DNA of 40,143 bases. Origin: a virus. The notes beneath the pieces are model-generated. The model searched no databases and had not been told where the DNA came from. It saw only the letters and a program-made list of their open reading frames with translations. Below are positions 9,860 to 40,143 of this stretch, one piece after another. A program made the position numbers and the translations under genes. Positions within the stretch are counted from its first letter, which is position 1; every line of letters starts with the position of its first letter. Where the stretch lies: positions 1 to 40,143 of the IMG/VR virus record IMGVR_UViG_3300027850_000001; one strand, written 5' to 3'.

Positions 9860-9877
9860 TATTGGGTTTAGTGAAGC

Positions 9878-10048: not shown

Positions 10049-10090
10049 GGTGAATGTCCTTTGGGTTGTTTGTTTTCTCTCTACCCTTTA

Positions 10091-10223: not shown

Positions 10224-10240
10224 CTTTAGGACTGACTAAC

Positions 10241-10411
10241 TTAGATGGAATAAAGGAACATAATGCGTCCAGACTTGAAGGTAACTTCTAAGCGTGTTTC
10301 AACTGGTAAGTCGATGTCGTGAACGTCTGAGAACTGAACTCCGGTAGCCTTCAAGGTGTATGTTTCGGAGTTGTCATCGTAGGTTAAAGCGGAACGAAGT
10401 ACTTGTAACAT
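10241..10411 (-). CDS. 56-aa early protein, paralog B (below the ORF-track cutoff).
   Basis: Hand translation: MLQVLRSALTYDDNSETYTLKATGVQFSDVHDIDLPVETRLEVTFKSGRIMFLYSI. Same leader and RBS as paralog A. Confidence 0.65.
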   Translation of the reverse strand: MLQVLRSALTYDDNSETYTLKATGVQFSDVHDIDLPVETRLEVTFKSGRIMFLYSI

Positions 10412-10453
10412 GGTGAATGTCCTTTAGGCGGTTTGTTTTCTCTCTACCCCTAA

Positions 10454-10482
10454 ATACTAACTAACATTCTTTTTTCTGTCAA
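10454..10482 (-). promoter_or_regulatory. Consensus sigma70-type promoter TTGACA-N17-TAGTAT.
   Basis: -35 at 10477-10482, exact 17-nt spacer, -10 at 10454-10459, then the TTAGGGGTAGAGAGAAAACAAACC leader. Confidence 0.7.
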
Positions 10483-10550
10483 GTACTTTTTCAATAGTTC
10501 AGTGTTTCTCTCTTTTTGGTAACAACCTATACCGCCTCTCAGTAACCTAG

Positions 10551-10850
10551 AATGGTGAAAAGTGGTTAGCGGCGTGAGGATGCCCTTGAAGGCTCATTAG
10601 TAAGCTAAATGACCTATTGGGTTCCCTCCCTATTTAGGAGGCTGTCACGCGCGGGCTGTAATGACCAAAACTCGTTAAAAGTGAAAAGAAAAGCGCAATG
10701 GTGAAAAGCAGAATGGTGAAATGTCTAAAATGACTAAAATGTCGAAAATGTCGAAAATGTACATAATGACTATAATGTTCAAAATGACTATAATGTACAT
10801 AATATACATAATGTACATAATGTTCAAAATGTCTCGAAGTGGTGAAAAAG
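10551..10850. repeat. Four dispersed copies of an AATGGTGAAAAG-like 12-mer (iteron-like).
   Basis: Copies: aatggtgaaaag 10551-10562, aatggtgaaaag 10697-10708, aatggtgaaatg 10712-10723, aagtggtgaaaaag 10837-10850. A related aaaagtgaaaag lies at 10677-10688. They flank the 9-bp array. Confidence 0.7.
10721..10837. repeat. Tandem array of thirteen 9-bp units, consensus ATGTNCAWA, AT-rich.
   Basis: Read directly: atgtctaaa atgactaaa atgtcgaaa atgtcgaaa atgtacata atgactata atgttcaaa atgactata atgtacata atatacata atgtacata atgttcaaa atgtctcga. Confidence 0.9.
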
Positions 10851-10911
10851 TACGAATAGCAAAAAAGAAGGCTTCTTAGCCCTCTCTTTTATTTAGCCCT
10901 CTCAGAATGCC

Positions 10912-12201
10912 TTAGAAAGGTTCATCGTCATCGTCTTCGACTAAAGCTTCAGCTATCACTTCGCGGCGGTACAGTTGGTCATCGTGGTCGTCTCTATCAA
11001 CTTCTTTCTCAAGGCTGTCAACTGTTGGAGGTGTAGGGATGATGTTAAGGTAGCTGTTGCCATTGTACTGTAAGGCGTTCCCTGGCATGTAAATAACGCC
11101 TTGAATCCGAAAACATTGAACTGTCATGTTGTAATAGTTGTTAGCCACATAATGACCAAGGTTCAGATCGTAATAAAGGTTGAACCGACTTTGGACAAAA
11201 CCTTCACTGTCTAATGTGAAATAGCGTAAAGTACTTCTGTCTTCAAAGTCTAAATGCTGTAAGGCTACGAAGTCGAAGTTTGAGAAGAACCCTTCTATCT
11301 CGGAGATGTCACCTCCTAAATAGGCTTCAACTTCATACTTGTCAAAAGACTGTAATGGCAAGTACTGGCAACTTCTAAAGTGTTGGGTGTAGCTTTGCAT
11401 TAAACACAACGCATTGTACTGTCTAGCAGTCGTAGGAGTGTAGTAAAGCTTGGTTGAACCCTTTATGACCTGTTGACCCGCTTGCTCGCTGTAGCGCCTT
11501 ACGAATAGGTCTAGAGACATCTCCGAATAGTCACCTTTATAAACGCAGTCTTTGGGTGACTTAATGGCTAGTGTTTCGACTACCACTTGGTCGCACCCTT
11601 TAAGGATGTCCGAGAGAAAAGTAACTATTTCACATTTAGGACTCGGATCTGGTTTTCTTACGGCGGCTACGTCATAACCCGGTTCAAGCACCACTCTCTT
11701 TTCGGTTAGACCTTCTAGCACTTTGTTTAGCTTTGTCATAGCTAGACGTCCTTTGAGAGTGCTTACTTTCTTAACAATGGACTCCGGCTTACTAAATAGA
11801 AACAAGACTGAAGGATGTCTGCCACTTTGGAATAGGTTGTGAAAGACGTGAGTGACAAGACTGGAAAGACAAGCTACAGTCCTTGGTACTACTGGTGTTA
11901 CCGATATTGCTACGTCTTTGTGAATGTAAAAGATGTGGACACCATCAACCATTGTCTCTTGTGAGTTGTTGTTTCTATAGGTGTAATAGGAGGTTACTAC
12001 TAGGTGGTTTTTGAACTTGTAAGCTACACTTTCCAAGCCTGTGAAAATGTGTGAACCGGAACCTATACACCAAACACTTCCAGATGTGTTCAGAGTGACC
12101 TTCTTACCATTCAACATTATTTCATCTATCAAAGCTTCTTTAATGTAAGAAGAGTCGGTTAAGAAGGCATCTAGGGAGTAGTCGTAGTTGTAGTCTAGCA
12201 T
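10912..12201 (-). CDS. Early protein of unknown function, large paralog 1, with an SSB-tip-like acidic C-terminus.
   Basis: 429 aa with a consensus promoter. It is paralogous to 12289..13428 (for example VTFLSDILKGC / VKFLIEVLKGC, and YYTPTTARQYNALCLMQSYTQHFRSCQY / FYFPETKEQYIAFILMMSYTTKFNSCMY). The protein ends ...ALVEDDDDEPF. Confidence 0.7.
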   Translation of the reverse strand: MLDYNYDYSLDAFLTDSSYIKEALIDEIMLNGKKVTLNTSGSVWCIGSGSHIFTGLESVAYKFKNHLVVTSYYTYRNNNSQETMVDGVHIFYIHKDVAISVTPVVPRTVACLSSLVTHVFHNLFQSGRHPSVLFLFSKPESIVKKVSTLKGRLAMTKLNKVLEGLTEKRVVLEPGYDVAAVRKPDPSPKCEIVTFLSDILKGCDQVVVETLAIKSPKDCVYKGDYSEMSLDLFVRRYSEQAGQQVIKGSTKLYYTPTTARQYNALCLMQSYTQHFRSCQYLPLQSFDKYEVEAYLGGDISEIEGFFSNFDFVALQHLDFEDRSTLRYFTLDSEGFVQSRFNLYYDLNLGHYVANNYYNMTVQCFRIQGVIYMPGNALQYNGNSYLNIIPTPPTVDSLEKEVDRDDHDDQLYRREVIAEALVEDDDDEPF

Positions 12202-12254
12202 GGTCTAATATCCTTTGTTGGGGTTGAGAGGTAAGCTGTTTTGCCTACCCCTAA

Positions 12255-12283
12255 ATACTAACTAACTATTTTCCCTTTGTCAA
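12255..12283 (-). promoter_or_regulatory. Consensus promoter TTGACA-N17-TAGTAT.
   Basis: -35 at 12278-12283, -10 at 12255-12260, then a TTAGGGGTAGG leader. Confidence 0.7.
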
Positions 12284-13428: not shown

Positions 13429-13480
13429 AAATGTCCTTTGTAACAGAGTAGTGTTAGGTGGCTTTTCTCTCCACCCCTAA

Positions 13481-13509
13481 ATACTAGCAAGGACTGTTTA
13501 AACTGTCAA
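13481..13509 (-). promoter_or_regulatory. Consensus promoter TTGACA-N17-TAGTAT.
   Basis: -35 at 13504-13509, -10 at 13481-13486, then a TTAGGGGTGGAGAGAAAAG leader. The -35 lies 8 nt from the divergent ATG 13518. Confidence 0.7.
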
Positions 13510-16859: not shown

Positions 16860-16872
16860 TCTCTCTCTCTCT
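16860..16872. repeat. (TC)6 microsatellite, (GA)6 on the coding strand, in the leader of 16631..16852.
   Basis: Read directly: tctctctctctct. Confidence 0.8.
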
Positions 16873-16882
16873 TTCTTCCTTT

Positions 16883-16911
16883 ATTCTAACACACTTTCAA
16901 CCGTTTACCAA
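16883..16911 (-). promoter_or_regulatory. Promoter TTGGTA-N17-TAGAAT with a TGT extension.
   Basis: The minus strand reads TTGGTAAACGGTTGAAAGTGTGTTAGAATAAAGGAAG. Confidence 0.55.
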
Positions 16912-17014: not shown

Positions 17015-19549
17015 TTAAAATGGTACTTCTATCTCACCTGGGGTTAATGTGTAACCGTAAGGTAGTAAAGCATCTTGACTTGGTGTAATGGCTTCTGCAT
17101 TGTCAGCGCCATTTTCACTCGGATCTGGAAAAGACACCTTACGCCAAACATGGTCTACATCTACCCCTGAAAACCAAGCACAGGCTTGAGGTATTCCATC
17201 TAAACCAAAGGCTTCAATGTAGATAGCCCTTGTGTAAAGGTGAGCTAGTTGTAAGGCGTAACCAGCAGCGCCAACTTGACTATCGGGTACTAAATAACGA
17301 ACTTCGTCATGGATAGGCATTAGGAGCTTACCATTCACATTAAGTTTCTTGAAGAAGTAGTGACAAAGGGTAAGAAGTATGTCACGCATGTCAACACCAC
17401 TGGACTGAATGCACCAGTTTATCTTTGTTGTCATGAAGTCTTTACCGGAAGTGGAAAGTGATAGTGATAGTGCAGCGCCTAGTACAGGTGTTCTAGGTAT
17501 AGCATTAGCGACTAAACGTTCCATGTAGTTGAAACTTTCAGATCCTAAGCCGTCTACCCATTTACCATTCCGTTTAACACCCTTTACCATTCTGATAAGG
17601 TAGTCAGTCTTTTCTTGAACTTCCCTATCGGTAAAGGCTGCATTAGACTTTCTGATGTAAGCGAACACGCCTTTGGAACCTAAGCCATAAAGCATTCCAT
17701 AAAAGATGTTCTTGGCTAGGGTGCGACCTATTCCGGCTAAGAGCGAGATGACGCTGTGAACATCTGTCTTCTGACTCTTAATGCCAACTAGCATTGTTAA
17801 GCCAAAGGATGAGGAACCGCAATAACCCATTAATGTGTCAGAAAATAGTGAGGCTATCCACGCTTCCTGTCCGTCAATATCAGCGCCAACTATCTTGAAT
17901 CCGAGAGGCGCTTCTATCATTGTCTTCAGTTCAGTACCTATTCTACCTTTCTTGGCATTAGGTGCGCACTGCCAAGTTGAGTCAGCAGCGCGGCGTGAGA
18001 CAGTACCAGTCGGAACGATAGCAGGTGTACAAACTGGGAACCCTTCTGGACTTTCCGTTCTAATGGCGGCAACTCGACTTCTCAAGCCTGTCCAGTTTAC
18101 GCAGGTTATGACCTTGGCAACTGTCTCACGAAGTAAAGGGTTAGTACTGTCAAGGATGCCAGCATCAAACCAGCCCGCCTTTGCTAGCTTCTCTGAGAAT
18201 AAGAATGACAAAGCCTTGTCAGCGTCCTCAAAGTTGTCTAAGAAGGCTTCAGTCGTTCTCCACCCTTCACAAGGCTTACCACCTTCAGTCTTTAAGGTAG
18301 GGTGTTTTTCCCAGTACAAGGGTAAACCTTTATAGGTCATGCTTAGTACTGCTACGGCTATCCTAGATGCCATTGTGACGTCTTCCGCCTTAATAGTCCT
18401 AAGCCATTTAGGTTGACCTTTAGTCTTTCCTGATAAACCCCTAGTCCAGTCTAGCCATTGTAAATGTTGGGGAATGTCTTCGTCAGCTATGAAGCCATAT
18501 TCGGATCTGAAGTTCTCATAAGCTAACCTAATGTCCTCAAGCACAGAAGCCATTGTCTCGTTATAAACCGCTTCTGCCTTGTCGTAGTAGCCTGGGAACC
18601 TTGTAGCCGATAAAGGTAGCCAACACTGCCCTAGCAACATCTGACCACTGAATGAAGCCTTAGATGGTTGAGCCATCTTTAACTCCGGATAGACGTGAGA
18701 GAACACTTCATGAGTTGCCATTACGTCGTCCAGACAGTAAGGCAGTACTTGTGGCATGTAACCCCACATCTGCTTAGGGTTCATCGTAACAAGGCTGTCA
18801 CGGGTTGTCTTGGTAAGGGTCTTCTTGGTGTAAAAGTTGTAAACTGCTGCTAGCCCTTTGGACGATGTTTCTTCACTCCAAGCCGAATAGTACTCCGACT
18901 TAAAAGCTCCGATCTGTTGGTTTGACATTCCGCGGACTGCAATAAAAGCACCCATTGTGTCGAAGTAATAGTTCGAGTCATCTGACCTATAGGACTCGCT
19001 GAAATAGCTCCGATCGTAAGGTACGTTATGACCAACTATGACTTGGTTGTCTCCTATGCTGACTGTTGTCACTAGGTCAGAATGTGAAGCCCATTGCCAA
19101 ACATACCAGCCTTTGTCAAGTACATAGCAAACACAAGTGGTAGGATACCAGTGTGTACCATTCTGAACTGTTTCAAAGTCAGCTACCATTGTTGAACCGT
19201 TAGCAGGCTTTTGACAGTGTTGCCAAGTCTTGCCCGTCCATCTCATCCATCCACTTTGGTTACAAGGGATGTTTTGTGGCGGCTTGGCAAGGGTGACAGT
19301 ACTCAACCTATCTAAACGTGCCAGGTAGTCATCTGCTACGGCTGACGCGTCTTCTAGGAGGTCTGAAGCTAAACCACAGAAAGAAGGTAGGGGAAGTTCG
19401 ACATTGGCACTAACGTCAGTTGCGTCTTGTAAGCCTGACGCAAGCCAGTTAGCTTGCATCTCCCGAACTTCTCTATTGGATGGTAAGTTAGGAACACGTC
19501 CTAACACTTGCAGGTGGAGTTGGTCTGATAATAACTTTACTTTGGTCAT
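17015..19549 (-). CDS. Family A DNA polymerase with a 3'-5' exonuclease domain.
   Basis: 844 aa. Exo motifs VADFETV, GHNVPYDRSYF, YCLDDVMATHEVF. Pol motif A VGADIDGQEAW, motif B RTLAKNIFYGMLYG, motif C PIHDEVRY. The start is uncertain, because the first 62 nt overlap the upstream ORF. Confidence 0.9.
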   Translation of the reverse strand: MTKVKLLSDQLHLQVLGRVPNLPSNREVREMQANWLASGLQDATDVSANVELPLPSFCGLASDLLEDASAVADDYLARLDRLSTVTLAKPPQNIPCNQSGWMRWTGKTWQHCQKPANGSTMVADFETVQNGTHWYPTTCVCYVLDKGWYVWQWASHSDLVTTVSIGDNQVIVGHNVPYDRSYFSESYRSDDSNYYFDTMGAFIAVRGMSNQQIGAFKSEYYSAWSEETSSKGLAAVYNFYTKKTLTKTTRDSLVTMNPKQMWGYMPQVLPYCLDDVMATHEVFSHVYPELKMAQPSKASFSGQMLLGQCWLPLSATRFPGYYDKAEAVYNETMASVLEDIRLAYENFRSEYGFIADEDIPQHLQWLDWTRGLSGKTKGQPKWLRTIKAEDVTMASRIAVAVLSMTYKGLPLYWEKHPTLKTEGGKPCEGWRTTEAFLDNFEDADKALSFLFSEKLAKAGWFDAGILDSTNPLLRETVAKVITCVNWTGLRSRVAAIRTESPEGFPVCTPAIVPTGTVSRRAADSTWQCAPNAKKGRIGTELKTMIEAPLGFKIVGADIDGQEAWIASLFSDTLMGYCGSSSFGLTMLVGIKSQKTDVHSVISLLAGIGRTLAKNIFYGMLYGLGSKGVFAYIRKSNAAFTDREVQEKTDYLIRMVKGVKRNGKWVDGLGSESFNYMERLVANAIPRTPVLGAALSLSLSTSGKDFMTTKINWCIQSSGVDMRDILLTLCHYFFKKLNVNGKLLMPIHDEVRYLVPDSQVGAAGYALQLAHLYTRAIYIEAFGLDGIPQACAWFSGVDVDHVWRKVSFPDPSENGADNAEAITPSQDALLPYGYTLTPGEIEVPF

Positions 19550-20689: not shown

Positions 20690-22414
20690 TTATTTAAGAA
20701 GTATTTCAAGGCTGTCTTCTAACTGCCTACTAACCACCTTCTTTTCGTCATCAGTCCAAGCGGAATATTCATGCATTTTGGCAACAAACTCTTCAGGACA
20801 TATCTGACTGTAATAGGCGCTTACAGATCCGGGATATTTGTAACCATCAGAACTGTGAATAAGTTGCGAAACTTTGTTAAACATACTCTGGGGTGACTCT
20901 GAGTCTATCGAGCGTATTAGTTCATGAATAGACCGCTTAATGGTCTTTGTATTACTCGCTGTAACACCTTTAGGGAAGAAGTCACTATCACGCCCTATTC
21001 CAGAGACAGTGGCTGCAATAGTTGCTAGTAAGTACTGGGAGCCATATTCCGATAGTAAGGTTCTTACCTTGTCTTCTTTTTCTTCAACAGACATATATTT
21101 ATCGATAGCGACTCCAAAGGCTACTAGATGTGCCGTAGCAGTACACATATCTTTCAGGCTAGTTAAGCCTGGTCTAACAGCGTAACTTAGTCTTAAGGAC
21201 TCATAAGTGGCATGAAGAGTGTTAGCGTCCATGTGTTCTTTGAACATCTCTTGGCTCTTCACTAGGAGGTGCATCATTAAGGCTTCAAGCGTTACCTCAT
21301 GTTTAGCTGCAAGGGCATACCATTGAGAGTATAAAGTCTTTTGTTCGCCTTTACTTAATGCCCATGTACTCTTGGTAGATAGGACGTTAGCCCGTGAAAT
21401 ATGTCCTGCATCAGCGCCAATATATTGCGCTTGCTTATTGTAGTTAGTACACCCTATGATGACTGCTGTTGTCTTAACACCACACTGCATGTCCTGTCCT
21501 TTATCTTCTGTCGTCATTAAACCACCGCTAGCTATTATCTTGACAGATGCATTCTTCATGAAAGAGTGTTGAACATCACTATTGAAGTCGTCTCTTAGTG
21601 CGAAGTCAGCAGTAGCGGGTTTACCCCAGTTGAACTTACTAGACATCTCAGTAGGTAAGTCTTGACAAACATAACCTAAGGATGACACTACTTTTTCCAA
21701 TAGCTGAATGAAGAAGCTCTTACCCATCCCAGCTATATCGGAATGTAGTAAGCACCATCCACGCCATCTATGGTCTATAACCCTACCATCTAAGGTTACT
21801 TGACCCTTAGCACCCCATAAACCACGACCTAACATCATCATAAGCATGGTAGCTTCAGCGTCAGGTAGGACGTGTAATAGCTCCATAACATCCAAGTCTC
21901 TCAGATGTTCCGGAACAAACTGAAATAGGGGTAACACTTTATTACCGTAACCAGTACCACCTTGCGTGTCTAAAACGCGGCTATCAACCTCATCCGAGCT
22001 TTTAGCAACGCTATTCATTGCGTTACCATTAGTAGTGTTCTCGAACAAAGATGTGTAAGCTTTAATAGCCTTATCCATCCAAGTCTTTGAACGGTTCTGA
22101 CCTTGCTCGTAACGCACCCAACTTAATATCATCTTTCTCAATGCAGATGTATTAGTGACGGTCTTTATAAGGCGTCTTGAGTTGCTAACATTACAACCAT
22201 CTATCCGTATGTAGTCAGTAAGATAGAAAGACCAGCCGCAATACTTACCTAATGGATCGGGAGCCATTAAATATCCTCTCGGTTCCATATAAGCCACTAG
22301 GTCTGCCAGTACCTCATCAAAAGCAATAAAAGTACCTGTCTCTTCACCGCCATGTTCTGCTTCATGTTCAGCTTTACCATTCATGTCAGCAGGGTCATGT
22401 GTTTTCATAGTCAT
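20690..22414 (-). CDS. Replicative NTPase/helicase of the P4/D5 (SF3) type, possibly a primase-helicase.
   Basis: 574 aa. The P-loop context WRGWCLLHSDIAGMGKSFFIQLLEKV is typical of the phage/plasmid primase P4-family C-terminal domain. It lies in the replication module. Confidence 0.6.
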   Translation of the reverse strand: MTMKTHDPADMNGKAEHEAEHGGEETGTFIAFDEVLADLVAYMEPRGYLMAPDPLGKYCGWSFYLTDYIRIDGCNVSNSRRLIKTVTNTSALRKMILSWVRYEQGQNRSKTWMDKAIKAYTSLFENTTNGNAMNSVAKSSDEVDSRVLDTQGGTGYGNKVLPLFQFVPEHLRDLDVMELLHVLPDAEATMLMMMLGRGLWGAKGQVTLDGRVIDHRWRGWCLLHSDIAGMGKSFFIQLLEKVVSSLGYVCQDLPTEMSSKFNWGKPATADFALRDDFNSDVQHSFMKNASVKIIASGGLMTTEDKGQDMQCGVKTTAVIIGCTNYNKQAQYIGADAGHISRANVLSTKSTWALSKGEQKTLYSQWYALAAKHEVTLEALMMHLLVKSQEMFKEHMDANTLHATYESLRLSYAVRPGLTSLKDMCTATAHLVAFGVAIDKYMSVEEKEDKVRTLLSEYGSQYLLATIAATVSGIGRDSDFFPKGVTASNTKTIKRSIHELIRSIDSESPQSMFNKVSQLIHSSDGYKYPGSVSAYYSQICPEEFVAKMHEYSAWTDDEKKVVSRQLEDSLEILLK

Positions 22415-24773: not shown

Positions 24774-25053
24774 ATTTTACTTCTTTACATTGCATCTGAT
24801 GTTGGGTTAGGTAGTAACCAGGGAACCCTTTAGCCTTCTCTTCCGAGTAAAGCTTACCTAACCTCTCCATCGCCTTGACAACATCTGAAAATATCTCATC
24901 GACGATAGTGGTTTGTGTTTCGGCTTCATTATGGTAAAGGGTGTTCCAAAAGTGGAGACTAACCCTAAAACCTTCAGGAACGGGCATACATTCAAAGCAA
25001 TAGATACCACCGACTATTACTTTTGTTATCCGTTCCATTCCGGGAATGTTCAT
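24748..25053 (-). CDS. Hypothetical protein.
   Basis: 101-aa ORF that overlaps the exonuclease start by 26 nt. Confidence 0.5.
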   Translation of the reverse strand: MNIPGMERITKVIVGGIYCFECMPVPEGFRVSLHFWNTLYHNEAETQTTIVDEIFSDVVKAMERLGKLYSEEKAKGFPGYYLTQHQMQCKEVKCEVFTYDN

Positions 25054-25054
25054 A

Positions 25055-25252
25055 TTAGAACCCTATCACGATGTCGAGCGCTTTTTCGAGATATGTCAAG
25101 TCTGCGAAAATGTCATCCATGTTTGCAACGGGATAGATGCCTGTTGCTTCAATGTAGAGTTCGTAAGTGACCCTTTGAATAGCTGTAAGGTACTTGGCTA
25201 TCAGGGTGTTATTTAGACCGTATTCGACATAAAGGAGGCTGCGTAATAACAT
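25055..25252 (-). CDS. Hypothetical protein.
   Basis: 65-aa ORF preceded by GAAGGAAAAG. Confidence 0.5.
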   Translation of the reverse strand: MLLRSLLYVEYGLNNTLIAKYLTAIQRVTYELYIEATGIYPVANMDDIFADLTYLEKALDIVIGF

Positions 25253-25284
25253 AATATTCTTTTCCTTCTAGGTTACTAGGGTGA

Positions 25285-25461
25285 CTATATTTTGTAAAGG
25301 TAAGTAGGGCTAGCGGAAGTAGACTTGATAGTGCGTGCATCTAAAGGACGGAAGAACTCGTTAGGAAAACCAGCTATTCCAAAGCTTGTCTTTCCTTTGA
25401 TGGTCACTTGGTAAGATGTACCGTGGATGTCTTGAACTAAGTCGTTTACTTGGATGTCCAT
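25285..25461 (-). CDS. 58-aa hypothetical protein (below the ORF-track cutoff).
   Basis: Hand translation: MDIQVNDLVQDIHGTSYQVTIKGKTSFGIAGFPNEFFRPLDARTIKSTSASPTYLYKI. It is the first ORF after promoter 25497..25505, with leader AAAGAAGAAAGAAAAGAGAAAGGAACAAAACAAA. Confidence 0.5.
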   Translation of the reverse strand: MDIQVNDLVQDIHGTSYQVTIKGKTSFGIAGFPNEFFRPLDARTIKSTSASPTYLYKI

Positions 25462-25496
25462 TTTGTTTTGTTCCTTTCTCTTTTCTTTCTTCTTTT

Positions 25497-25505
25497 ATTA
25501 TAACA
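25497..25505 (-). promoter_or_regulatory. Extended -10 promoter TGTTATAAT.
   Basis: The minus strand reads CCTTGTTATAATAAAAGAAG. Confidence 0.6.
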
Positions 25506-25546
25506 AGGAAAACCGCGCTTGAACCGAAACTTGAAAGATATTTGTG

Positions 25547-25744
25547 TTAAGTAATGTTAAGCTTGTTAGTTAAGTAGGTCATGTCAGACTTGGTGATGCA
25601 TAACACTTGACCACCGTCTGTAGTTGGTAAGGCGTGAACCTTAACCTCAAAGAAGTCTAACACCTCCCAGGTGAGAGAGAAGCACTTTACAACTTCTCCC
25701 AGGGGTACTAACTCTTCAGATCCGAAATAGTACTGTTTAGTCAT
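25547..25744 (-). CDS. Small early protein, paralog family member 3.
   Basis: 65 aa. Its pattern LVPLGEVVKCF...VHAL.T.DGGQVLCITKSDMTYL parallels the two upstream paralogs. Confidence 0.5.
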   Translation of the reverse strand: MTKQYYFGSEELVPLGEVVKCFSLTWEVLDFFEVKVHALPTTDGGQVLCITKSDMTYLTNKLNIT

Positions 25745-25751
25745 ATCTCCC

Positions 25752-26021
25752 TTAAGTTAAACCGTCTTCTTTGAACCGTTCCATTATTAGATGTGAAATG
25801 CGAAGTAGGTCATTATACTGGATGCAACTGTGTTCTACGGCATAACTATCGGTAATAAGGTGTAAGGCTATCTTAAGTTCTTTCAGGAATGATAAGGTGT
25901 CAGACAACCCATACAACCGATAGACGTCGACAACAGGGGTGAAGGTGTTCTTACCTTTAGTTGTGAACACTCTGAAGCTATTAGTGGACAAAGCAACTGT
26001 TTTCTCTCTGGTAGCCAACAT
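25752..26021 (-). CDS. Small early protein, paralog family member 2.
   Basis: 89 aa. FRVFTTKGKNTFTPVVDVYRLY...LHLITDSYAVEHSCIQYNDLLRISHLIM aligns with 26051..26422. Confidence 0.55.
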   Translation of the reverse strand: MLATREKTVALSTNSFRVFTTKGKNTFTPVVDVYRLYGLSDTLSFLKELKIALHLITDSYAVEHSCIQYNDLLRISHLIMERFKEDGLT

Positions 26022-27172: not shown

Positions 27173-27208
27173 GTGGTTTGTTCCTTTGTCTCTTTTCTTT
27201 CTTCTTTT

Positions 27209-27237
27209 ATAGTAACTAAACCTTTAGGTAAATGCAA
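27209..27237 (-). promoter_or_regulatory. Promoter TTGCAT-N17-TACTAT.
   Basis: -35 at 27232-27237, -10 at 27209-27214, then an AAAAGAAGAAAGAAAAGAGA leader. Confidence 0.55.
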
Positions 27238-27257: not shown

Positions 27258-27533
27258 TCATGTCTCTTTTATATCGGGTAGGTTCCTAAGTACGTTAAGG
27301 CTAAACCATTCACCATGCATCCGATAGGAGCTATACATCTTATGAAGGCTAGCTTCTTTTTTGAAGGCAAGGGCGCGGGAAGAAAACGGAATGGTGTGAA
27401 CTATTTCTAACTTGCCACCGTTACCAGTTTGCAAAGCCTTAACCCGCTTGGCAACATTTTTTGCTATTCCGACTTTCACTCTCAAGCCGTCAGTAATGTA
27501 ATAAACATAGCATACAGGTACATCATGTATCAT
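27258..27533 (-). CDS. T5orf172 / MUG113-type (GIY-YIG-like) domain protein.
   Basis: 91 aa. YVYYITDGLRVKVGIAKNVAKRVKALQTGNGGKLEIV...HGEWFSL fits the T5orf172 pattern (Y.Y....KIG.T.....R...LQTGN...L...EWF). Confidence 0.6.
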   Translation of the reverse strand: MIHDVPVCYVYYITDGLRVKVGIAKNVAKRVKALQTGNGGKLEIVHTIPFSSRALAFKKEASLHKMYSSYRMHGEWFSLNVLRNLPDIKET

Positions 27534-28172: not shown

Positions 28173-28394
28173 ATGTTTTCCTTTGAGTTGTTTTATGTTG
28201 TTGACGGTAAGAAGTCTTTTTACGCGGGTGAGAATGCCTTTGGTTTTTGGTTTATCAACTTGGTTGACCGAACTAAGAGTGTAGTACTGTTAGCCGATAA
28301 GGATACCGTAAAGGTATATGTTGAACCTACCGATAGCATTCCCTCCTTACCTTCTATTATAACACCAAAAGCAGGTAAAAAGCATGTTGACTGA
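28173..28394 (+). CDS. Doubtful hypothetical protein.
   Basis: 73-aa ORF whose ATG is 3 nt from the divergent ATG of 27702..28169. It is crossed antisense by promoter 28356..28364. No RBS or promoter seen. Confidence 0.3.
   Translation: MFSFELFYVVDGKKSFYAGENAFGFWFINLVDRTKSVVLLADKDTVKVYVEPTDSIPSLPSIITPKAGKKHVD
28356..28364 (-). promoter_or_regulatory. Extended -10 promoter TGTTATAAT, driving 27702..28169 through a ~180-nt leader.
   Basis: The minus strand reads GGTGTTATAATAGAAGGTAAGGAGGG. Confidence 0.55.
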
Positions 28395-28569
28395 GAAATA
28401 TGTTGCAACAGTTGCGCGGGTTTGCGTGACAATAACAGCGATAGTGGCAACGACGGTCGTGACAGTAATAAAACCAGATGTTGCGCCAGTGTTCACTAGT
28501 GTTGCGGTAGGTGCTATATCGGGCTTCTTTGCCATCTCTCGGAACAATGATAATAACAAGTCGGAGTAA
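28384..28569 (+). CDS. Holin-like small membrane protein.
   Basis: 61 aa with two hydrophobic helices (VARVCVTITAIVATTVVTVI and VFTSVAVGAISGFFAI) and a polar/charged C-terminus SRNNDNNKSE. Confidence 0.45.
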   Translation: MLTEKYVATVARVCVTITAIVATTVVTVIKPDVAPVFTSVAVGAISGFFAISRNNDNNKSE

Positions 28570-28572
28570 CCT

Positions 28573-28929
28573 ATGTCTTTATTCAAGTCAATAACGGGTG
28601 TTGCGCAACAGGCTTTGGGAAAGACAAAAGACTTTCGGAAGATATTGGACGCCGCACCTGGTTTGTCTTCTTTCACGTTCCCGCCGCAAGTAACCCTTGG
28701 TTTGACCATTGCTAACAAGTTAGGGTTAGGCTTACCTACTACGCCGGAGCAAGCTATTACACGTATTCTAGGTAGTACTAAAGGCATCGACAACATACTA
28801 GGTACGTTAAAGAATACAACCGCACAAGTAGAAGGCTTTTTAGGGCAAGGAATAGTCAAGATAGGTGGTATCGAACAAAAAGCAGATAGCGTCCAGAAAG
28901 TCTTGAATAGTATCGAGTGGTTACAGTAG
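28573..28929 (+). CDS. Hypothetical protein, second gene of the plus-strand island.
   Basis: 118 aa, with GGAG 8 nt upstream of the ATG. Its composition is more protein-like than that of the antisense 170-aa ORF. Confidence 0.55.
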   Translation: MSLFKSITGVAQQALGKTKDFRKILDAAPGLSSFTFPPQVTLGLTIANKLGLGLPTTPEQAITRILGSTKGIDNILGTLKNTTAQVEGFLGQGIVKIGGIEQKADSVQKVLNSIEWLQ

Positions 28930-28938
28930 ACACAACAA

Positions 28939-28962
28939 AAGCCTACTTTTTAGGGTAGGCTT
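28939..28962. terminator. Hairpin usable in both directions. It has a better U-tract on the minus strand.
   Basis: AAGCCTAC (28939-28946) pairs with GTAGGCTT (28955-28962). The minus-strand RNA continues UUUGUUGUG. Confidence 0.6.
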
Positions 28963-29006
28963 CAGAAGCTGTCAGAAGAAGGTGTTATCTCAGTGAAGTG
29001 ACGATA

Positions 29007-29015
29007 AGTATAACA
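29007..29015 (-). promoter_or_regulatory. Extended -10 promoter-like TGTTATACT inside the ncRNA locus, about 70 nt upstream of the terminator.
   Basis: The minus strand reads CATTGTTATACTTATCG. The 9-mer is identical to the one at 1805..1813. Confidence 0.4.
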
Positions 29016-29575
29016 ATGAAGCTATTCCTTATATAGTGTCAAGACCCGCCTTAGTTTTAACTGTTTCCAGTCCTTCAAGCAAACAAGTTGACATGAGAAC
29101 CTAGTAGACATCCAGACCTAAGCGCCAGCTAATAGGTTAAGACGTCTATTCGGTTTTTTTCCCTAGCTATCGAAGTATTTAGACTTACTTGTAGTGCGGG
29201 CTACTTGGCTAACACTACCGATAGCATCAGGGTTAGGCGTCGAGTACTTTTCTGAACTTTGGTATCCATCTTGTCTCAGTCTTCAACCCGGTAGCGCTTT
29301 GGACGCTGGCGCTATAATGACCGTAGTCACTAGTTTAATAACGCTACCGAATATCCCACTGAAACAACCTTCAACCTTAGTCCTTACTAAGTACCGTCAA
29401 CCTAACAATGTGAGAGAGAAGTATTTACTAGGACACGGAATGGACTTACGCGCTCTCATACACTCTACGTGCTGAATATTTGCACTGCGTTCCGTATTAG
29501 TTGGTTTATCTTCCGGGAACTGCCCTTAGGTGTTCTGCCTTGACTTCCCCGCTCTTCTCTTTCCCTCACTTCTAT

Positions 29576-29584
29576 ATAATAACA
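29576..29584 (-). promoter_or_regulatory. Extended -10 promoter TGTTATTAT for the ORF-free unit.
   Basis: The minus strand reads CTTTGTTATTATATAGAAGTGAGGGAAAGAGAAGAG. The purine-rich leader resembles the other early units, but no start codon follows. Confidence 0.5.
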
Positions 29585-29632
29585 AAGACTGTCTGAAAAT
29601 GCAAGGGCTTTTTGAAGCTTTTGTACTGAACT

Positions 29633-30493
29633 TTAATGAACATCATTAGGGTATAAAAAGCACGCGTATTCCAAGATGTTATCACATACTAAAACCGAGA
29701 ATGGAACATCTATAGGTGTACCAGGCGTCTGTAATATTTTTTGGACTTCACTTTCTAAAGTTAAGAGCTTGGCTTTTGGTAAAGTTTCTATTCGGTCTAA
29801 AAGTGCGACCATCTTACGCATCCTATCAGTAGTAGGTGTAGGTAGTGTATGTAACCTGGTGAGCCATCTTGGACTATTAAAGACGACAGGTTTTAGACTC
29901 CATATCATGACCCATTTTCCACAATAAAACGTCTTCTTTAGTACAGCTTCTTCAGGGTACGCCGCAACTTCAGGGGTCATAGGTATAACAGGTAGTTCAG
30001 GTTTTGGCTCTTTAACTGGTGTAATAACTTCAGTAGGTACTAATACTTCCTTAACGACTTCGACACTTTCCGAAACTTGACCTGTTTTAGGTTTACCGTT
30101 TTCAAAACGGAGAACCCTAGCTTTTTTAGCTTTTTCGGATCTGATGGTTTTTAGTCTTAGCTTCTCTTTATCACTAGCAGCTTTACGACCAGCCCTTGAT
30201 AGTTCCCAAAGTGTCCTTTGGTTTAGCTCTTCAAACTCAACGTCAGTCAAGGCATATTCATTATATATAGTGTCAGGTTTAATGAAACTATAGTCTGGAA
30301 CGACCTTGTAATAGTCCTTATGTAGCTTCACATAGCTTTGAATAGCCCTTCTGATAAGCTCGGAGTCAGACATATCCATAGCAATAGCAAGGGAATGAAA
30401 CGTCATGTGATGTGCGCTATTGATATTAAATGATACAGTGTGACTAGGCATCCGTTTATTTCTTGGTCTGAACTCGGTAGTTTCGTCAGTCAT
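29633..30493 (-). CDS. Ribbon-helix-helix (CopG/Arc-type) DNA-binding protein with a long C-terminal extension. First gene of the minus arm.
   Basis: 286 aa. The N-terminal HTVSFNINSAHHMTFHSLAIAMDMSDSELIRRAIQSYV fits a strand-helix-helix RHH layout. It lies next to the divergent promoter region. Confidence 0.55.
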   Translation of the reverse strand: MTDETTEFRPRNKRMPSHTVSFNINSAHHMTFHSLAIAMDMSDSELIRRAIQSYVKLHKDYYKVVPDYSFIKPDTIYNEYALTDVEFEELNQRTLWELSRAGRKAASDKEKLRLKTIRSEKAKKARVLRFENGKPKTGQVSESVEVVKEVLVPTEVITPVKEPKPELPVIPMTPEVAAYPEEAVLKKTFYCGKWVMIWSLKPVVFNSPRWLTRLHTLPTPTTDRMRKMVALLDRIETLPKAKLLTLESEVQKILQTPGTPIDVPFSVLVCDNILEYACFLYPNDVH

Positions 30494-30765: not shown

Positions 30766-31077
30766 ATGAGGGAAAAACAGAGATATACTAGGCTACTTGA
30801 CAAACTAGGTTCTTTCCGTGCTGACATAGAAGATATCTTAACGCAGGCAGAAGCCGTTTATCAGGCATGCCAAGTTGATGGTTATTTGACTCAGAAAGTG
30901 GCGGGAAAAGACGCTATCGACTTATTGGAACGTTTACCGTCAGTGGCAATACAAGCGGTTACGTTGAAGCTAGCGGCTGTCAAGTGGATAACGGAACAGG
31001 CTGCATTAGAAGATAGCATCGAGACGGATGACGATGCAACTGTCATTAAGGTTGTTTTCTCGGAGGTTAAGGAATGA
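30766..31077 (+). CDS. Hypothetical protein upstream of the portal gene, possible small terminase subunit.
   Basis: 103 aa with an ATGA overlap with the portal gene. The call is from position only. Confidence 0.4.
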   Translation: MREKQRYTRLLDKLGSFRADIEDILTQAEAVYQACQVDGYLTQKVAGKDAIDLLERLPSVAIQAVTLKLAAVKWITEQAALEDSIETDDDATVIKVVFSEVKE

Positions 31078-32570
31078 AAATGGAGTTACAAGAAAACCTA
31101 CTTTACACTATTTTGCAACGGACGCATGAGGACTATGACTTCTATGCTAGTACTTGGAAAACGATATCGGAGTTACGTGACGGCGCTCCTAGCATCCTAA
31201 GGAACATCGAATACTATCTCCCTATGAAGCCTGACGAAACACGGAGGGACTATCAAAGCAGAATGAAGCGGTTTAGTTACACGCCTATCTTTAGTACTGC
31301 CATAAAGGATACAGCAGCCAAGCTAGCAGCGTCACCACTATACGTCAACACGCAAGGTGATATCGATACAGTCTTTGACTATATTAGGGGTCATAACGAC
31401 GCTAGGGGAACCCGTGACGAAAGAACACTAGTTCAAGATATCTTTCTTGAGATGTTGTATTACGGCAAAGTTTACATTGTGGCGGATAGGAGACAACCCG
31501 AACAGACACCACGTAGTAAGGCGGAAGAGACTGCTTTAGCTATGCCTTATTTGAACATACTACCCGTGACAAGTGTTGTCGACTGGAATAGGGATGACGA
31601 CTGGTTTAAGGTGCGGGAAATAGTGGCTGAAAGAACACCTATAGCTTTAGACTATAAAGTTCGATACACGTACTATATGCCGGGACAAACCGTAGTATAT
31701 GAAGCTCCGGTTCAGTTGAAAAATGGCGAAGTCTGGAAAGTATGGAACGGTTCCAAGTTTATGTTGCCAAACACGCCAGGTCTAAGCTTGCCTATGACAG
31801 TGTTCCCTCATAATGCAGCTAACAGTCTTGTAACAGTTGGCGAACTGCCAGCCGAACTATGGGTAGGTTGTATGTGTTATTTGAAGCAAATACAACACAT
31901 GAATATCGAGTCAAGTTGGGGTGATAGTGGTGTTTTGGCTGGGACTATCCAAAGGGTGTTTACGCCGTCACCACCTGTTGCTAACGATAACCCCTCATAC
32001 TTGCAGGAAGAACCGGAGTATGATAAGGTGTTACTCGGAAACAGACAAGTTTTAGTGGGTGCATCATTCCAGTTTGTCGAGTCGACAGGGCAAGCTATTC
32101 GGAACCTGACAGACCAACTACGGACTATTGAGGAACAAATAAAAGCTATCGTCTCAATGAGGTTTGCATCGTCTGATACATCAGTACTAGCGCAAAGTGG
32201 TGCTAGCAAGATGGTTGACCAAATACAACTGATAAATACGATGCGAGACTATGGTAACAGGGTACGTCATGTTTATGAAGCCGCACTCCAAAACATAGCT
32301 ATTTTGATGGGACTATCGCCAGACGATATCGTGGTGCAAGGTCTGAATGACTTCAATGTCGACGACATCAAAGAAGAACTACTAAACGCTGTATCAGTAG
32401 ACGGACTTCGCGGTAACATCCCCTTAACAGCCCAAAAACTATTTTGGCAAAAGATATCCAAGATGTTGACCGGGACAGTTTCGACAGTGGATGAGGATAC
32501 GATACGTGATGAGTTAGAAGTGATATTCAACCCGGCAAACAATGTGACACCTGTAGGAGAGGTATTGTAA
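31074..32570 (+). CDS. Portal protein.
   Basis: 498 aa, first large gene of the head module, followed by scaffold-like and capsid-like genes. The call is from size and synteny. Confidence 0.6.
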   Translation: MKMELQENLLYTILQRTHEDYDFYASTWKTISELRDGAPSILRNIEYYLPMKPDETRRDYQSRMKRFSYTPIFSTAIKDTAAKLAASPLYVNTQGDIDTVFDYIRGHNDARGTRDERTLVQDIFLEMLYYGKVYIVADRRQPEQTPRSKAEETALAMPYLNILPVTSVVDWNRDDDWFKVREIVAERTPIALDYKVRYTYYMPGQTVVYEAPVQLKNGEVWKVWNGSKFMLPNTPGLSLPMTVFPHNAANSLVTVGELPAELWVGCMCYLKQIQHMNIESSWGDSGVLAGTIQRVFTPSPPVANDNPSYLQEEPEYDKVLLGNRQVLVGASFQFVESTGQAIRNLTDQLRTIEEQIKAIVSMRFASSDTSVLAQSGASKMVDQIQLINTMRDYGNRVRHVYEAALQNIAILMGLSPDDIVVQGLNDFNVDDIKEELLNAVSVDGLRGNIPLTAQKLFWQKISKMLTGTVSTVDEDTIRDELEVIFNPANNVTPVGEVL

Positions 32571-33487: not shown

Positions 33488-34507
33488 ATGCCTTTAACTT
33501 CTATTGAGACTATCGCTAAAGCAGTTGAGCCAGCAGTCGCTAATACGCGCCTCACAGCTATCCCCTTACTTGTGAACCTATACGCCCGGAAAAGCATGCG
33601 TACTAAGTTCGACACCAGTCTTAACTGGAACGTTGACATGGGTGGTGCAGTTGCCGCTATTGAAGCAGTTACAGCTAACGGCTCATTAACCGCAACAGAT
33701 GACGTATTCGCAGCATCACTTCGTATCGGTCGTTACCGTGTGAAACATCAGTTCAACATCTCACGTATCGAGATAGAAGAAGCAGCTACACTTGCCGTTG
33801 AAGAACTAGCTGACTTGTTTGAAAGTCATGTTAAACGTGGTGTTTCTCGCATCCTCCGAACTATCAACCAACTTCTTTTCACTGGCGCGGGTAATGCTGG
33901 CGCGGCTGAAATATCCGGTCTAAGTGTAGTACGTGACAACACAGTATCTTATGCTGGTTTATCTCCCGTAACCTATCCTACTTGGCAAGCTATCCGGAAC
34001 ACAGACGCATCACCCCGTGCTTTGACTTCTAGCCTATTGTTAGACTTTCAACAAGTAGTCCAAGAGCAAGAAAGTTCTTACGACATGATAGTTTGCGCAC
34101 CCGGAATGGGAACCGCTTACACCAAGTTGTTTATCACTGCTGGCGGTGGTTTTGGTCTGACCCCAGATGAAGAAGTCAATGGCTTGACCCGTGTTGAACT
34201 TGGTATGGGTGGACGGTACTATCAAGGTATCCCCATTATTGAAGACCCCATGTGTTCTGCCGGAACCTTATACTTCCTCAATAGCCAAGACTTGAACGTC
34301 TATTCTTTCGCATTGCAACGTAGCGCGTCCAGTGGCGATATGGCAAACACAGCCATCATCAACCCGGAGTCAACCTACGGTATCAACGTTCACATTGCCG
34401 AACTACCTTCTAATAACAGTGCAGTTCGTTCCTTTGAACTTTATGCATTACCACAGTTCCGGGTATTCAACCGGAAGTCAGTTGCATCCCTAGATAGCTT
34501 AACTTAA
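33488..34507 (+). CDS. Major capsid protein.
   Basis: 339 aa. Position after the scaffold-like gene and size are typical of HK97-fold capsid proteins. No motif verified. Confidence 0.6.
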   Translation: MPLTSIETIAKAVEPAVANTRLTAIPLLVNLYARKSMRTKFDTSLNWNVDMGGAVAAIEAVTANGSLTATDDVFAASLRIGRYRVKHQFNISRIEIEEAATLAVEELADLFESHVKRGVSRILRTINQLLFTGAGNAGAAEISGLSVVRDNTVSYAGLSPVTYPTWQAIRNTDASPRALTSSLLLDFQQVVQEQESSYDMIVCAPGMGTAYTKLFITAGGGFGLTPDEEVNGLTRVELGMGGRYYQGIPIIEDPMCSAGTLYFLNSQDLNVYSFALQRSASSGDMANTAIINPESTYGINVHIAELPSNNSAVRSFELYALPQFRVFNRKSVASLDSLT

Positions 34508-38789: not shown

Positions 38790-40143
38790 ATGGTACTACC
38801 TATCGCCGCAATAGTCGGAGGTGTTGCAGCAGCGTCGACAATAGCATCAGGTATTGGCAACATCATCCAAGTAGGCATCGATGTCAAAGACAACTTGACA
38901 CCGACTTTAGAAACGTATGAAGGCAAGATACAGACTTTAGAACAGGTTACGAACAGTTGGTTTAATGGCTTCACGCGGGCTATACCTTCAAACTTGCTAG
39001 ACGGTTTACGTTCAGGTGTCGACTATATTAGAGATGGTTTGTGGTCAGCCGCCCAAATGCAAACTTCTATTATTGCGTCATCGTCCGAACTGGCGGTGAA
39101 CATGAAGATACCTATTGGAGACGCGAGAAAACTGATAGAAAGTAGTCAAGTTGCCATTGCGAATATAGCAGCAGCTTTGCCAGGGGAAACTGCTGGTTAT
39201 GCTAGTATCTACCGGAGTATCGCGGGTTCACTTTCAAAGCAGTTTAGTGGAGATGACTTTACAGCAAAGAGTGAAGAGTTTACAAAACGAATAGGTATTC
39301 TTGCTGCTATTCGCGGGGTTGATATGAACAACGCTGGGAACGCGAGTAACAGGTTCTTGACCGGGACAACTGGTTTTCAAGAGTCGATGGTAGCGGATAT
39401 CTTTCAAAACAACGCAAACCTTCAAAGCAACTTACGTGACCAGCTTGCGAAAAATGGCTTGTCTCCGGAAGACTGGAAAAGCATAACACAGGAAGCGCGA
39501 ACTAAGGTTTACTTGACCGCCTTACAGATGTCAGCGCCAGATAGTTTGATAGCCGAGTTTGAAGGTACTTTCCAAGGTACAGTCGAGACTATCAAGACAA
39601 AGATATTTGACCCGCTAACAGGGTTGTTTGGCATCCTACGCCAAGTTGAAGGTAAAGATAAACGTTCAGTACTCGACGCGGCTAATGGCATCTTGCAAGC
39701 CTTAAAAAGCGTAGGTGACATGTTTGAGAAGTTGGCTGGCGGCTTAGGTGTAAACCTTGACCCACTTTACTATCTGATAGGGTTCTTCGATGAAATAACA
39801 AAGGTGGTCAAAACCATTAGGGCGTCAATGAACAGTGTCGACGCTATTGGGTTCTTGGCTGACTATGTGAACGACCTACCCGGCATGATAGGTAGTTGGG
39901 CGGTGGGTGCTATCAAATATCTTTCCTCATTAGTTGACCGACTATTGGGCGCGGGGTTAAACGGGTCTGAACTTGGCAAAGTGGCTGGGACAGTTATGAA
40001 CATGTTCGAGACTATCAAAGACAACGTTCTCGATAACATAGATGTCAAGCAACTTGCTGAACTATATTTCAGAATATCGAAAGAGATAGCTGACTTCCAA
40101 GGTGAACTTTGGTGGTCGTCCATCAAAATAATACCAACACGTA
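38790..40143 (+). CDS. Tail tape measure protein, N-terminal part (runs off the window and continues at 128..567).
   Basis: ATG at 38790 (MVLPIAAIVGGVAAASTIASGIG...). The frame is open to the window end and in frame with 1..567 after the overlap is collapsed. Confidence 0.7.
   Translation, partial: MVLPIAAIVGGVAAASTIASGIGNIIQVGIDVKDNLTPTLETYEGKIQTLEQVTNSWFNGFTRAIPSNLLDGLRSGVDYIRDGLWSAAQMQTSIIASSSELAVNMKIPIGDARKLIESSQVAIANIAAALPGETAGYASIYRSIAGSLSKQFSGDDFTAKSEEFTKRIGILAAIRGVDMNNAGNASNRFLTGTTGFQESMVADIFQNNANLQSNLRDQLAKNGLSPEDWKSITQEARTKVYLTALQMSAPDSLIAEFEGTFQGTVETIKTKIFDPLTGLFGILRQVEGKDKRSVLDAANGILQALKSVGDMFEKLAGGLGVNLDPLYYLIGFFDEITKVVKTIRASMNSVDAIGFLADYVNDLPGMIGSWAVGAIKYLSSLVDRLLGAGLNGSELGKVAGTVMNMFETIKDNVLDNIDVKQLAELYFRISKEIADFQGELWWSSIKIIPTR
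40017..40143. repeat. Second copy of the 127-bp terminal repeat.
   Basis: Exact match to 1..127. Confidence 0.95.

Follow-up and report, generated by a model that had tools for sequence, protein, structure and literature searches.

A probable clade-restricted structured noncoding RNA gene in the genome of an uncultured contractile-tailed phage

Structured noncoding RNAs (ncRNAs) longer than ~300 nt are rare in bacteria and phages, and almost every well-studied large one is, to our knowledge, a ribozyme, the core of a ribonucleoprotein or, lately, a self-assembling RNA cage. Phage-encoded examples include the 174 nt pRNA of phi29, part of a terminase-less packaging motor, and the stable RNAs (species 1 and 2) of T4, which lie in a tRNA cluster. 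Here we describe a locus in the 40,143 nt genome of an uncultured phage (IMG/VR record IMGVR_UViG_3300027850_000001, positions 1 to 40,143; this whole stretch is called the window below), where a minus-strand unit without a substantial open reading frame (ORF) occupies positions 28932-29604 and is predicted to give a transcript of ~636 nt, from ~29570 to ~28935. In our reading the locus is very probably a real structured ncRNA gene, and its product is probably new and restricted to one clade of phages. This RNA would constitute a new family among the large structured phage ncRNAs, and a new large RNA equipped with its own early promoter would be a tractable case for learning what large phage RNAs do.

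ROOL and GOLLD, large ornate RNAs that phages and prophages often carry and to which the original prediction likened the locus, form homo-oligomeric cages as determined by cryo-EM (PMC12286853). The candidate RNA resembles them in belonging to the 0.5-0.8 kb size class, in being phage-borne, multi-domain and an independent unit, in its many apparently conserved helices, and in having no associated protein. This likeness holds as an analogy of kind but does not extend to a covariance-model match, as the ROOL (RF03087) and GOLLD (RF01998) models matched neither at gathering score nor at E<10 in the window or in L001, a contig from a related phage. Unlike either family the candidate RNA consists of domains strung one after another, and a global closing helix is not supported; host range and environment differ as well. 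Unlike GOLLD, often adjacent to tRNAs, it has no tRNA genes beside it. ARAGORN found no tRNA gene in the window or its relatives, and no tRNA or tmRNA model matched the region at E<10. Searches with Rfam 15 returned no family at gathering score, either in the whole window or in seven loci from relatives; relaxed to E<10 or E<1, and applied to the locus in the window, in L001 and in the more distantly related contig L005, they gave nothing but spurious hits to snoRNA and miRNA models. The lack of tRNA, tmRNA and group I intron hallmarks, remarked on when the locus was first noticed, agrees with the ARAGORN and Rfam results.

Protein-titrating RNAs offer a second comparison. The mode of action that we propose below, an abundant, stable structured RNA titrating a protein, would be analogous to that of the CsrB/RsmZ sponges and of 6S RNA; as in CsrB/RsmZ-type sponges, the copy number of one module differs between homologs, and the 175 nt rod that forms domain B (Table 1) is comparable in length to 6S RNA (~180 nt). 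Unlike the CsrB, Rsm and 6S families, the candidate RNA has no match in Rfam. 6S RNA itself was rejected on this ground and because domain B has several small internal loops instead of one large central bubble mimicking an open promoter, and a CsrA sponge was rejected because GGA is not enriched (12 occurrences vs. 11.1 +/- 2.7 expected). UAAGG is mildly enriched (5 vs. 0.9 expected) and is not conserved in L001. Like phi29 pRNA and T4 species 1 and 2, the candidate is a phage-encoded structured RNA in an early-type unit that is predicted to act as RNA; unlike phi29, the phage described here has a T4-type large terminase, and unlike the T4 species RNAs the candidate is not accompanied by tRNAs. 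No sequence or model similarity to phi29 pRNA or to the T4 stable RNAs was detected. Among RNAs defined by partner genes, the retron msr/msd, defense-associated reverse transcriptase (DRT) ncRNAs, omega RNA and bridge RNA were set aside because no reverse transcriptase, TnpB/IscB or recombinase gene is adjacent; Pfam, PHROG and PADLOC, applied to 30 proteins of the window and to the neighbors, show none, and the phage encodes no other obvious partner of an RNA. A group I or group II intron was set aside because Rfam gives no match and the unit lies between genes with a promoter and terminator of its own.

An existing catalog of candidate structured phage RNAs was built from IMG/VR by combining conserved intergenic phage sequence with covariation, in a pipeline that accepted strictly intergenic sequence only and needed three or more unique matching regions, and its entries are mostly short motifs rather than 0.6 kb units (Fremin, Bhatt and Kyrpides 2023, PMC10690425). 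The discovery logic is the same as ours, and IMG/VR is also the source of two homologous contigs. The candidate RNA is found in those two IMG/VR contigs only, in identical form, with a spurious ORF placed in it by gene callers; its inclusion in a catalog that needs three unique loci and strictly intergenic sequence is therefore unlikely.

The unit is framed by transcription signals that are conserved in relatives, in accordance with the original prediction of an ORF-free stretch running from promoter to terminator. Its extended -10 element (Table 1) falls in a block of ~51 nt, 29587-29537 (CTTTGTTATTATATAGAAGTGAGGGAAAGAGAA), that is 100% conserved in relatives; a simple sigma-70 scan did not detect this promoter because its -35 hexamer is poor. 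The motif CTTTGYTATTATWWAGAAGTG together with a purine-rich leader occurs again at 23485-23465, there in front of a real protein gene (leader ~65 nt), so the unit has the usual early front end of this phage without a gene behind it. This second copy, along with other promoter families that precede purine-rich leaders, bears out the earlier remark that the promoter and initial transcript look like those of other early units. At the other end, a terminator scan recovers the proposed hairpin and U-run with a stem of 9 bp, one more than first described. The U-run is present on the minus strand only, and the terminator is invariant across five sequence variants.

Two more promoter-like repeat families occur on the minus strand, TTGACA...TAGTATTTAGGGGTAGAGAGAAAA and GTTATAATAAAAGAAGAAAGAAAAGAGA, each followed by a purine-rich leader. 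Promoter-like repeats of this sort lie at 10073-10119, 10436-10482, 12237-12283 and 13463-13509, and also at 16863-16890, 25477-25504 and 27189-27216; their sequences suggest distinct temporal promoter classes. A separate observation concerns the 3' tail of the RNA (28985-29000; ~3745-3760 and 3610-3625 in L001), which contains a conserved motif CACUGRRAUAC(N)CCU. Its form in the first of two copies in L001 is ACCUCCUUA, which we take to match exactly the anti-Shine-Dalgarno sequence at the 3' end of 16S rRNA, and the other variants differ from it by 1-3 nt. Judged by this complementarity, the motif might mask the Shine-Dalgarno-like 5' leader.

No protein-coding gene accounts for the unit. 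The longest minus-strand ORF within 28935-29572 is 34 aa, no minus-strand ORF is conserved in relatives, and no reading frame on either strand is, consistent with the initial observation that no start codon leads into a long ORF. A single longer ORF exists, one of 93 aa that begins with GTG on the plus strand (29194-29475). In L001 it is reduced to 59 aa and starts elsewhere, two indels (1 and 2 nt) put the lineages in different frames, each of the two substitutions that fall in its conserved part alters the amino acid (V to E, P to Q), and a synonymous-site pattern is lacking. Micro-ORFs on the minus strand have lost their frame or are cut short in L001, where the 34 aa GTG ORF becomes a frameshifted 17 aa ORF, and indels of 1-4 nt are spread across the unit when the window is compared with its relatives. 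An intact gene at this position in homologs had been named as an observation that would speak for a decayed pseudogene; close homologs have no intact gene here, and proteins from the same slot in distant relatives leave no tblastn trace within the RNA region, and a pseudogene was rejected on these grounds.

Predicted folding is stronger than expected and is concentrated in the middle of the unit. The full unit has a folding z of -4.9 on the minus strand vs. -2.0 on the plus strand, and domains B-D together, a core of ~310 nt (29098-29406), have a z of -5.1. When the genome was scanned in 300 nt windows on both strands, 29101-29400 ranked first of 266 windows (z -4.7 minus, -4.6 plus; genome mean -0.58, sd 1.24). 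Four of the five helix groups first proposed reappear in computed folds: the three-way junction is both the minimum free energy (MFE) and the centroid structure of 29161-29231, the 8 bp helix CGGUAGCG/CGCUACCG belongs to the 13 bp stem of domain B, and the ACGGAA/UUCCGU and GUUAGG/CCUAAC pairings are found in the MFE structure as well as in a two-sequence consensus. The fifth, a 6 bp hairpin at 29376-29391, is a feasible pairing; in the MFE and consensus structures, though, its bases belong to a long-range stem, which makes the hairpin a competing alternative.

Domain B is an irregular rod with several small internal loops and a branched tip, and L001 gives the same architecture as an independent MFE prediction, but with a z of only -1.07. 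Domain C resembles a tRNA in outline only, in having a 7 bp stem and two arms, and a tRNA mimic finds no support from ARAGORN or Rfam. Domain A has a consensus fold with many double changes, yet its single-sequence folds differ between the two phages. We also observed a perfect 8 nt complementarity between AGCGCCAG in the branched tip of domain B (29313-29320) and CUGGCGCU at the apex of domain D (29121-29128). Both sides are invariant in relatives, ~3 such matches are expected by chance at this RNA length, and the complementarity could represent a tertiary or kissing contact.

The same phage was recovered in a JGI contig, Ga0105044_10000799, whose RNA region is 100% identical to that of the window. 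This independent assembly is circular with an end overlap of 123 nt inside the locus, and its two ends carry 100% identical sequence there. Searches with the 118 aa, portal and RHH proteins, followed by contig look-ups in JGI and ENA metagenomes, yielded relatives that carry the RNA at full length (L001/L012 and L002/L011, from two JGI samples), its 5' part only (L009 and L010, identical to L001), its 3' half (L008, a third variant), or its 3' end only (L007 and L027, the latter a fourth variant of the last ~60 nt).

Comparison with L001 shows the core to be 91.3% identical, vs. a genome mean of 86% +/- 6.5% in 120 nt windows; the portal gene is 87.6% identical, domain A 68%, and the 3' part of the RNA 65%. 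Substitutions within the core are largely of kinds that a folded RNA accommodates. Domain D shows one C-G to U-A double change next to a G-U to A-U change (pairs 443/478 and 444/477). Domain B has six one-sided transitions that produce G-U wobbles and one that breaks a pair, nearly all on its 3' strand, while its 5' strand (GGUACUUAGUAAGGACUAAGGUUGAAGGUUGUUUCAG) and tip are nearly invariant (two changes in ~115 nt), and the tip itself changes from cUACGg in the window to cUUCGg in relatives. The stems of domain C are invariant in three variants, with a 3 nt indel confined to a loop. Outside the core, domain E keeps its GNRA loop class (GAAA/GGAA), and an alignment of four copies, including both copies of a duplication in L001/L002, contains 5 pairs with double changes, with compensation in the closing helix and the inner hairpin. 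The number of copies is itself variable: L001 contains at 3600-3860 a tandem duplication of ~130 nt of module E (also in L002/L011), the copies being ~85% identical, and both L001 copies retain the GNRA and inner hairpins; the window, L008 and L027 are single-copy.

A two-sequence consensus contains 155-162 pairs, with 14-15 double changes and no broken pair. As a control, the consensus was re-predicted on 100 column-shuffled alignments. The observed alifold energy is -137 vs. -88 +/- 6 for the shuffles (z -8.5), and -99 for the reverse complement; double changes number 14 vs. 5.9 +/- 2.8 for the shuffles, the highest value in any shuffle being 15. At least 13 invariant G-U pairs, as well as the wobbles created by substitution, can form only on the minus strand, and because so many pairs are G-U the signal is specific to that strand, matching the orientation of promoter and terminator. 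The structure predicted from the window alone, when imposed on L001, keeps 27 of 59 changed pairs (null 21 +/- 3) and includes 9 double changes (null 3.2 +/- 1.7).

Table 1. Features of the candidate RNA unit and of the surrounding phage genome (window coordinates).
Feature	Position	Strand	Remarks
-35-like hexamer TTGCAT	29599-29604	minus	17 nt upstream of -10; conserved as CCCTTGCA in L001, L009, L010
Extended -10 promoter TGtTATTAT (TGTTATTAT)	29576-29584	minus	read from sequence; start predicted near 29570
Purine-rich 5' leader (GAAGUGAGGGAAAGAGAAGAG)	29548-29572	minus	Shine-Dalgarno-like; without conserved start codon downstream
Domain A, variable 5' region	29418-29547	minus	z about -0.2; structure uncertain
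Domain B, 175 nt irregular rod	29232-29406	minus	closed by GUUAGGU/GCCUAAC; 13 bp stem; cUACGg tip; z -5.4
Domain C, three-way junction	29161-29231	minus	7 bp stem around two hairpins, zero junction nucleotides; MFE = centroid; z -3.4
Domain D, 58 nt hairpin	29098-29155	minus	z -4.65 (window), -3.84 (L001)
Domain E, multibranch 3' module with GNRA hairpin	28971-29084	minus	folded alone, z -0.1 to -0.8
Intrinsic terminator	28932-28963 (stem 28963-28938)	minus	9 bp stem, GC core GCCUAC/GUAGGC, 8 nt loop, then UUUUGUUGUG; terminator scan
286 aa RHH-domain gene	29633-30493	minus	one flank of RNA locus
73, 61 and 118 aa gene cassette	28173-28929	plus	other flank, convergent on RNA unit
T4-type large terminase	8010-9272		
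Family-A DNA polymerase	17015-19549		
Portal	31074-32570		
SU10-like major capsid protein	33488-34507		

Distribution of the RNA is narrow. More distant relatives (L005, L015, L016, L018 and L019), with portals 55-72% identical to that of the window, gave no RNA match with blastn, with nhmmer or with a covariance model built from domains C+D, and nhmmer and the same model find no second copy elsewhere in the window. DNA-pattern scans of IMG/VR gave just the two known contigs, an equivalent scan of JGI metagenomes gave the same two contigs plus two chance matches (L021 and L023), and a scan of representative genomes gave no RNA homolog. A portal-profile scan of IMG/VR added one distant contig (L025), searches with neighboring proteins revealed no RNA variants other than L001/L002, L007-L010 and L027, and blastn against GenBank phages found no match. 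The slot itself, between the early RHH-type gene and the convergent 118 aa gene, is filled differently in these distant phages: L015 and L016 have unrelated small proteins, and L005 has the same promoter and purine leader followed by ~530 ORF-free nt, four tiny, mostly membrane ORFs and a terminator. The lack of any RNA match and the presence of other contents in the slot indicate that the RNA is clade-restricted and occupies a variable accessory position.

At the end of the ORF-free leader in L005 (10977-11034, minus strand) we noticed a tRNA-like element with an acceptor stem, D arm and T arm and no anticodon arm. It scores 28.8 bits against RF00005, just below the gathering score of 29, and is negative by ARAGORN; it could serve as a processing signal or mimic a tRNA.

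Confidence in a structured RNA must be tempered by several results. Only two full-length and two partial variants are available, too few for an R-scape-type covariation test, and RNAalifold applied to two sequences over-fits, with 1 of the 100 column shuffles reaching 15 double changes. The reciprocal of the imposed-structure test, the L001-only structure on the window, is at null level. As to the covariation check suggested at the outset, changes are compatible with structure and the consensus is far from its shuffles, in a comparison of only 2-4 variants that is supported in one direction. Folding evidence is likewise mixed, in that the L001 core folds alike but is thermodynamically ordinary (z -1.1), and domains A and E are unexceptional when folded alone; the original claim of helices beyond chance therefore applies to the core, which beats shuffled controls, and not to A or E alone. 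Full-length MFE folds of the window and L001 have just 30 pairs in common, so long-range pairings are unreliable, and a helix closing the 5' and 3' ends is no better than shuffles in 3 of 4 variants, the exception being copy 1 of L001. Conservation alone is not exceptional either, since some coding windows equal the best RNA window. Finally, absence of the RNA at portal identities of 55-72% means that it is dispensable for this phage type.

Taking these points into account, we find the original interpretation right in its essentials and consider the best overall explanation to be an ncRNA gene whose product serves as an early protein-binding scaffold or decoy, to which we assign a rough probability of 0.55, a compromise between a gene that is very probably real and a mechanism that is itself less likely than not. 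A host-type RNA polymerase would initiate near 29570, at the early-class extended -10, and transcribe as far as the intrinsic terminator (near 28935), producing an RNA of ~636 nt without a conserved reading frame. This RNA is predicted to fold as a string of separate domains, namely the variable domain A, the conserved core of B, C and D, and domain E in variable copy number. It would act in trans, as RNA, early in infection, its several domains forming a stable platform on which a protein is bound or sequestered, whether a host factor, a defense sensor or a phage protein. We favor a scaffold or decoy for three reasons: constraint on the core extends beyond pairing to the sequence itself (one strand of domain B, and the junction domains), the copy number of module E changes between lineages, and the unit sits in an early accessory slot that relatives fill with unrelated small genes. 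The contents of that slot in relatives predict an accessory, host-interaction or counter-defense role rather than one in core replication or assembly. A bolder proposal, which like the mechanism we hold to be less likely than not, is that the RNA founds a separate class of phage RNAs, large (~0.64 kb), multi-domain and without relation to ROOL, GOLLD or OLE. It might function as a decoy for a host defense or RNA-binding factor, as a self-assembling particle or as a ribozyme, and would then stand in for a protein accessory or counter-defense gene.

The main rival is a cis-acting or otherwise local role, in which the unit is a transcriptional buffer or antisense to the convergent 28173-28929 cassette, a former long leader whose downstream small ORFs have gone, or a precursor processed into small RNAs, with the large fold being secondary. 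The unit does converge on that cassette, and because the terminator hairpin has no U-run on the plus strand, read-through from the cassette into the RNA region is possible. L005, with its long ORF-free stretch behind the same promoter and leader, resembles what a leader of this kind would look like, and the tRNA-like element at its end could mark a processing site. Yet neither sequence comparison nor the covariance model relates the L005 region to the RNA, and a buffer or leftover leader would not be expected to preserve a 310 nt core that is 91% identical, varies by compensatory and wobble changes, and retains its tetraloop classes. Complementarity to other parts of the phage nowhere exceeds 13 nt, which also makes an antisense target within the phage unlikely. 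We regard a local role as improbable, though it is the best placed of the alternatives to an RNA that acts in trans.

Scarcely behind it is the proposal that the region is a nonfunctional spacer or a decaying remnant, whose folding arises by chance and whose similarity reflects recent ancestry, the apparent compensation being two-sequence over-fitting. The small number of variants, the ordinary z of the L001 core, the null result with the L001 structure, the single shuffle that matched the observed number of double changes, and the absence of the RNA from more distant relatives would all fit such a history. It fits poorly with a core that is conserved above the average coding sequence while the flanks of the unit drifted to 65-68%, with the top folding outlier of the genome and a strand-specific consensus energy, and with a perfectly conserved promoter and terminator and a duplicated module that retains its helices; we think a spacer or remnant unlikely.

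Less probable again is an element that works at the level of DNA, such as a replication origin beside its initiator (the 286 aa RHH protein) or a site of packaging or frequent recombination, in which the inverted repeats would bind proteins or form cruciforms. The core folds nearly equally on both strands, the adjacent gene encodes a DNA-binding RHH protein that is very divergent between lineages (37% aa identity), and several metagenome contigs end within the region. G-U pairs and wobbles that are valid on the minus strand only, together with the gap in consensus energy between the strands (-137 vs. -99), argue instead for RNA, as do the UNCG and GNRA loop classes, which are RNA features, and the promoter and terminator at its two ends. 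For an origin, the 9 nt iteron-like array at 10688-10833 is the better candidate, and the contig ends fall at differing coordinates, with one pair an arbitrary break of a circular contig and with L001 and L002 reading through.

That the locus encodes one or more small proteins, either from the plus-strand ORF at 29194-29475 (52-93 aa) or from minus-strand micro-ORFs of 20-34 aa, is very improbable: gene callers annotate a 91 aa plus-strand product in the JGI contig and the 59 aa version is open in L001 with the same stop, but the start is not conserved, the frame is disrupted as described above, and the plus-strand ORF runs opposite to the promoter and terminator.

The contig ends deserve description in their own right. 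Seven ends from five assemblies (L007, L008, L009, L010, L024, L026 and L027) fall within the RNA locus, at ~28975-29320, and ENA contigs assembled with MEGAHIT end at the borders of the near-identical core. Apart from the pair at the break of the circular contig, they likely result from branching of the assembly graph, where co-occurring strains share the core and differ in its flanks.

The genome in which the RNA lies is complete and was assembled as a circle: bases 1-127 are an exact terminal repeat of 40017-40143 (127 nt), the product of a circular k-mer-overlap assembly, leaving a unique length of 40,016 nt. Identified genes describe a contractile-tailed, lytic-looking myovirus; in addition to those in Table 1 they include baseplate J, a 5'-3' exonuclease, a DUF5906-type helicase/primase and an M23 peptidase. 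The closest GenBank phages are cyanophages, with a portal identity of just 26-31%, and a portal-profile scan of 185,579 representative genomes found no prophage relatives.

Genes beside the RNA show peculiarities of their own. The RHH protein (4420-5280 in L001) has the 37% aa identity between lineages mentioned above while the surrounding genes have 85-94%, and the part of the RNA that neighbors it, domain A, is likewise the most diverged part of the RNA; this divergence could reflect a specificity or immunity determinant, or a recombination mosaic. Sequence searches of the PDB with two proteins neighboring the RNA gave no match. Two units downstream of the RNA lies a 91 aa T5orf172/MUG113 (GIY-YIG-related) gene (27258-27533), which is also present in L001. 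In phages of the L001 type, an additional 397 aa gene (5402-6595 in L001, 1351-2544 in L009), absent from the window, separates the RHH gene from the divergent control region. At the nucleotide level this gene is 72-76% similar to a segment of the helicase/primase gene of the window (21236-21973), and it is equipped with a copy of the early promoter (6671-6651).

The RNA locus is not the only sizeable gap between genes. It had been claimed that all other gaps are shorter than 330 bp, which is incorrect, since 10411-10912 is also ORF-free over ~500 bp; a further long stretch, 25053-25752, is occupied by ORFs of 58-65 aa. The ~500 bp gap lies upstream of the gene at 10912-12201 and contains, at 10688-10836, ~13 tandem 9 nt units (AAATGTCNA / AATGACTAT) with super-periods of 18 and 27 nt, an iteron-like array that we consider a candidate replication origin from its repeat structure. 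Nearby, a direct repeat of 229 nt (9877-10105 and 10240-10468, 83% identical) holds two paralogous 56 aa ORFs on the minus strand (9878-10048 and 10241-10411), each with a copy of a 47 nt promoter-like motif in front of it.

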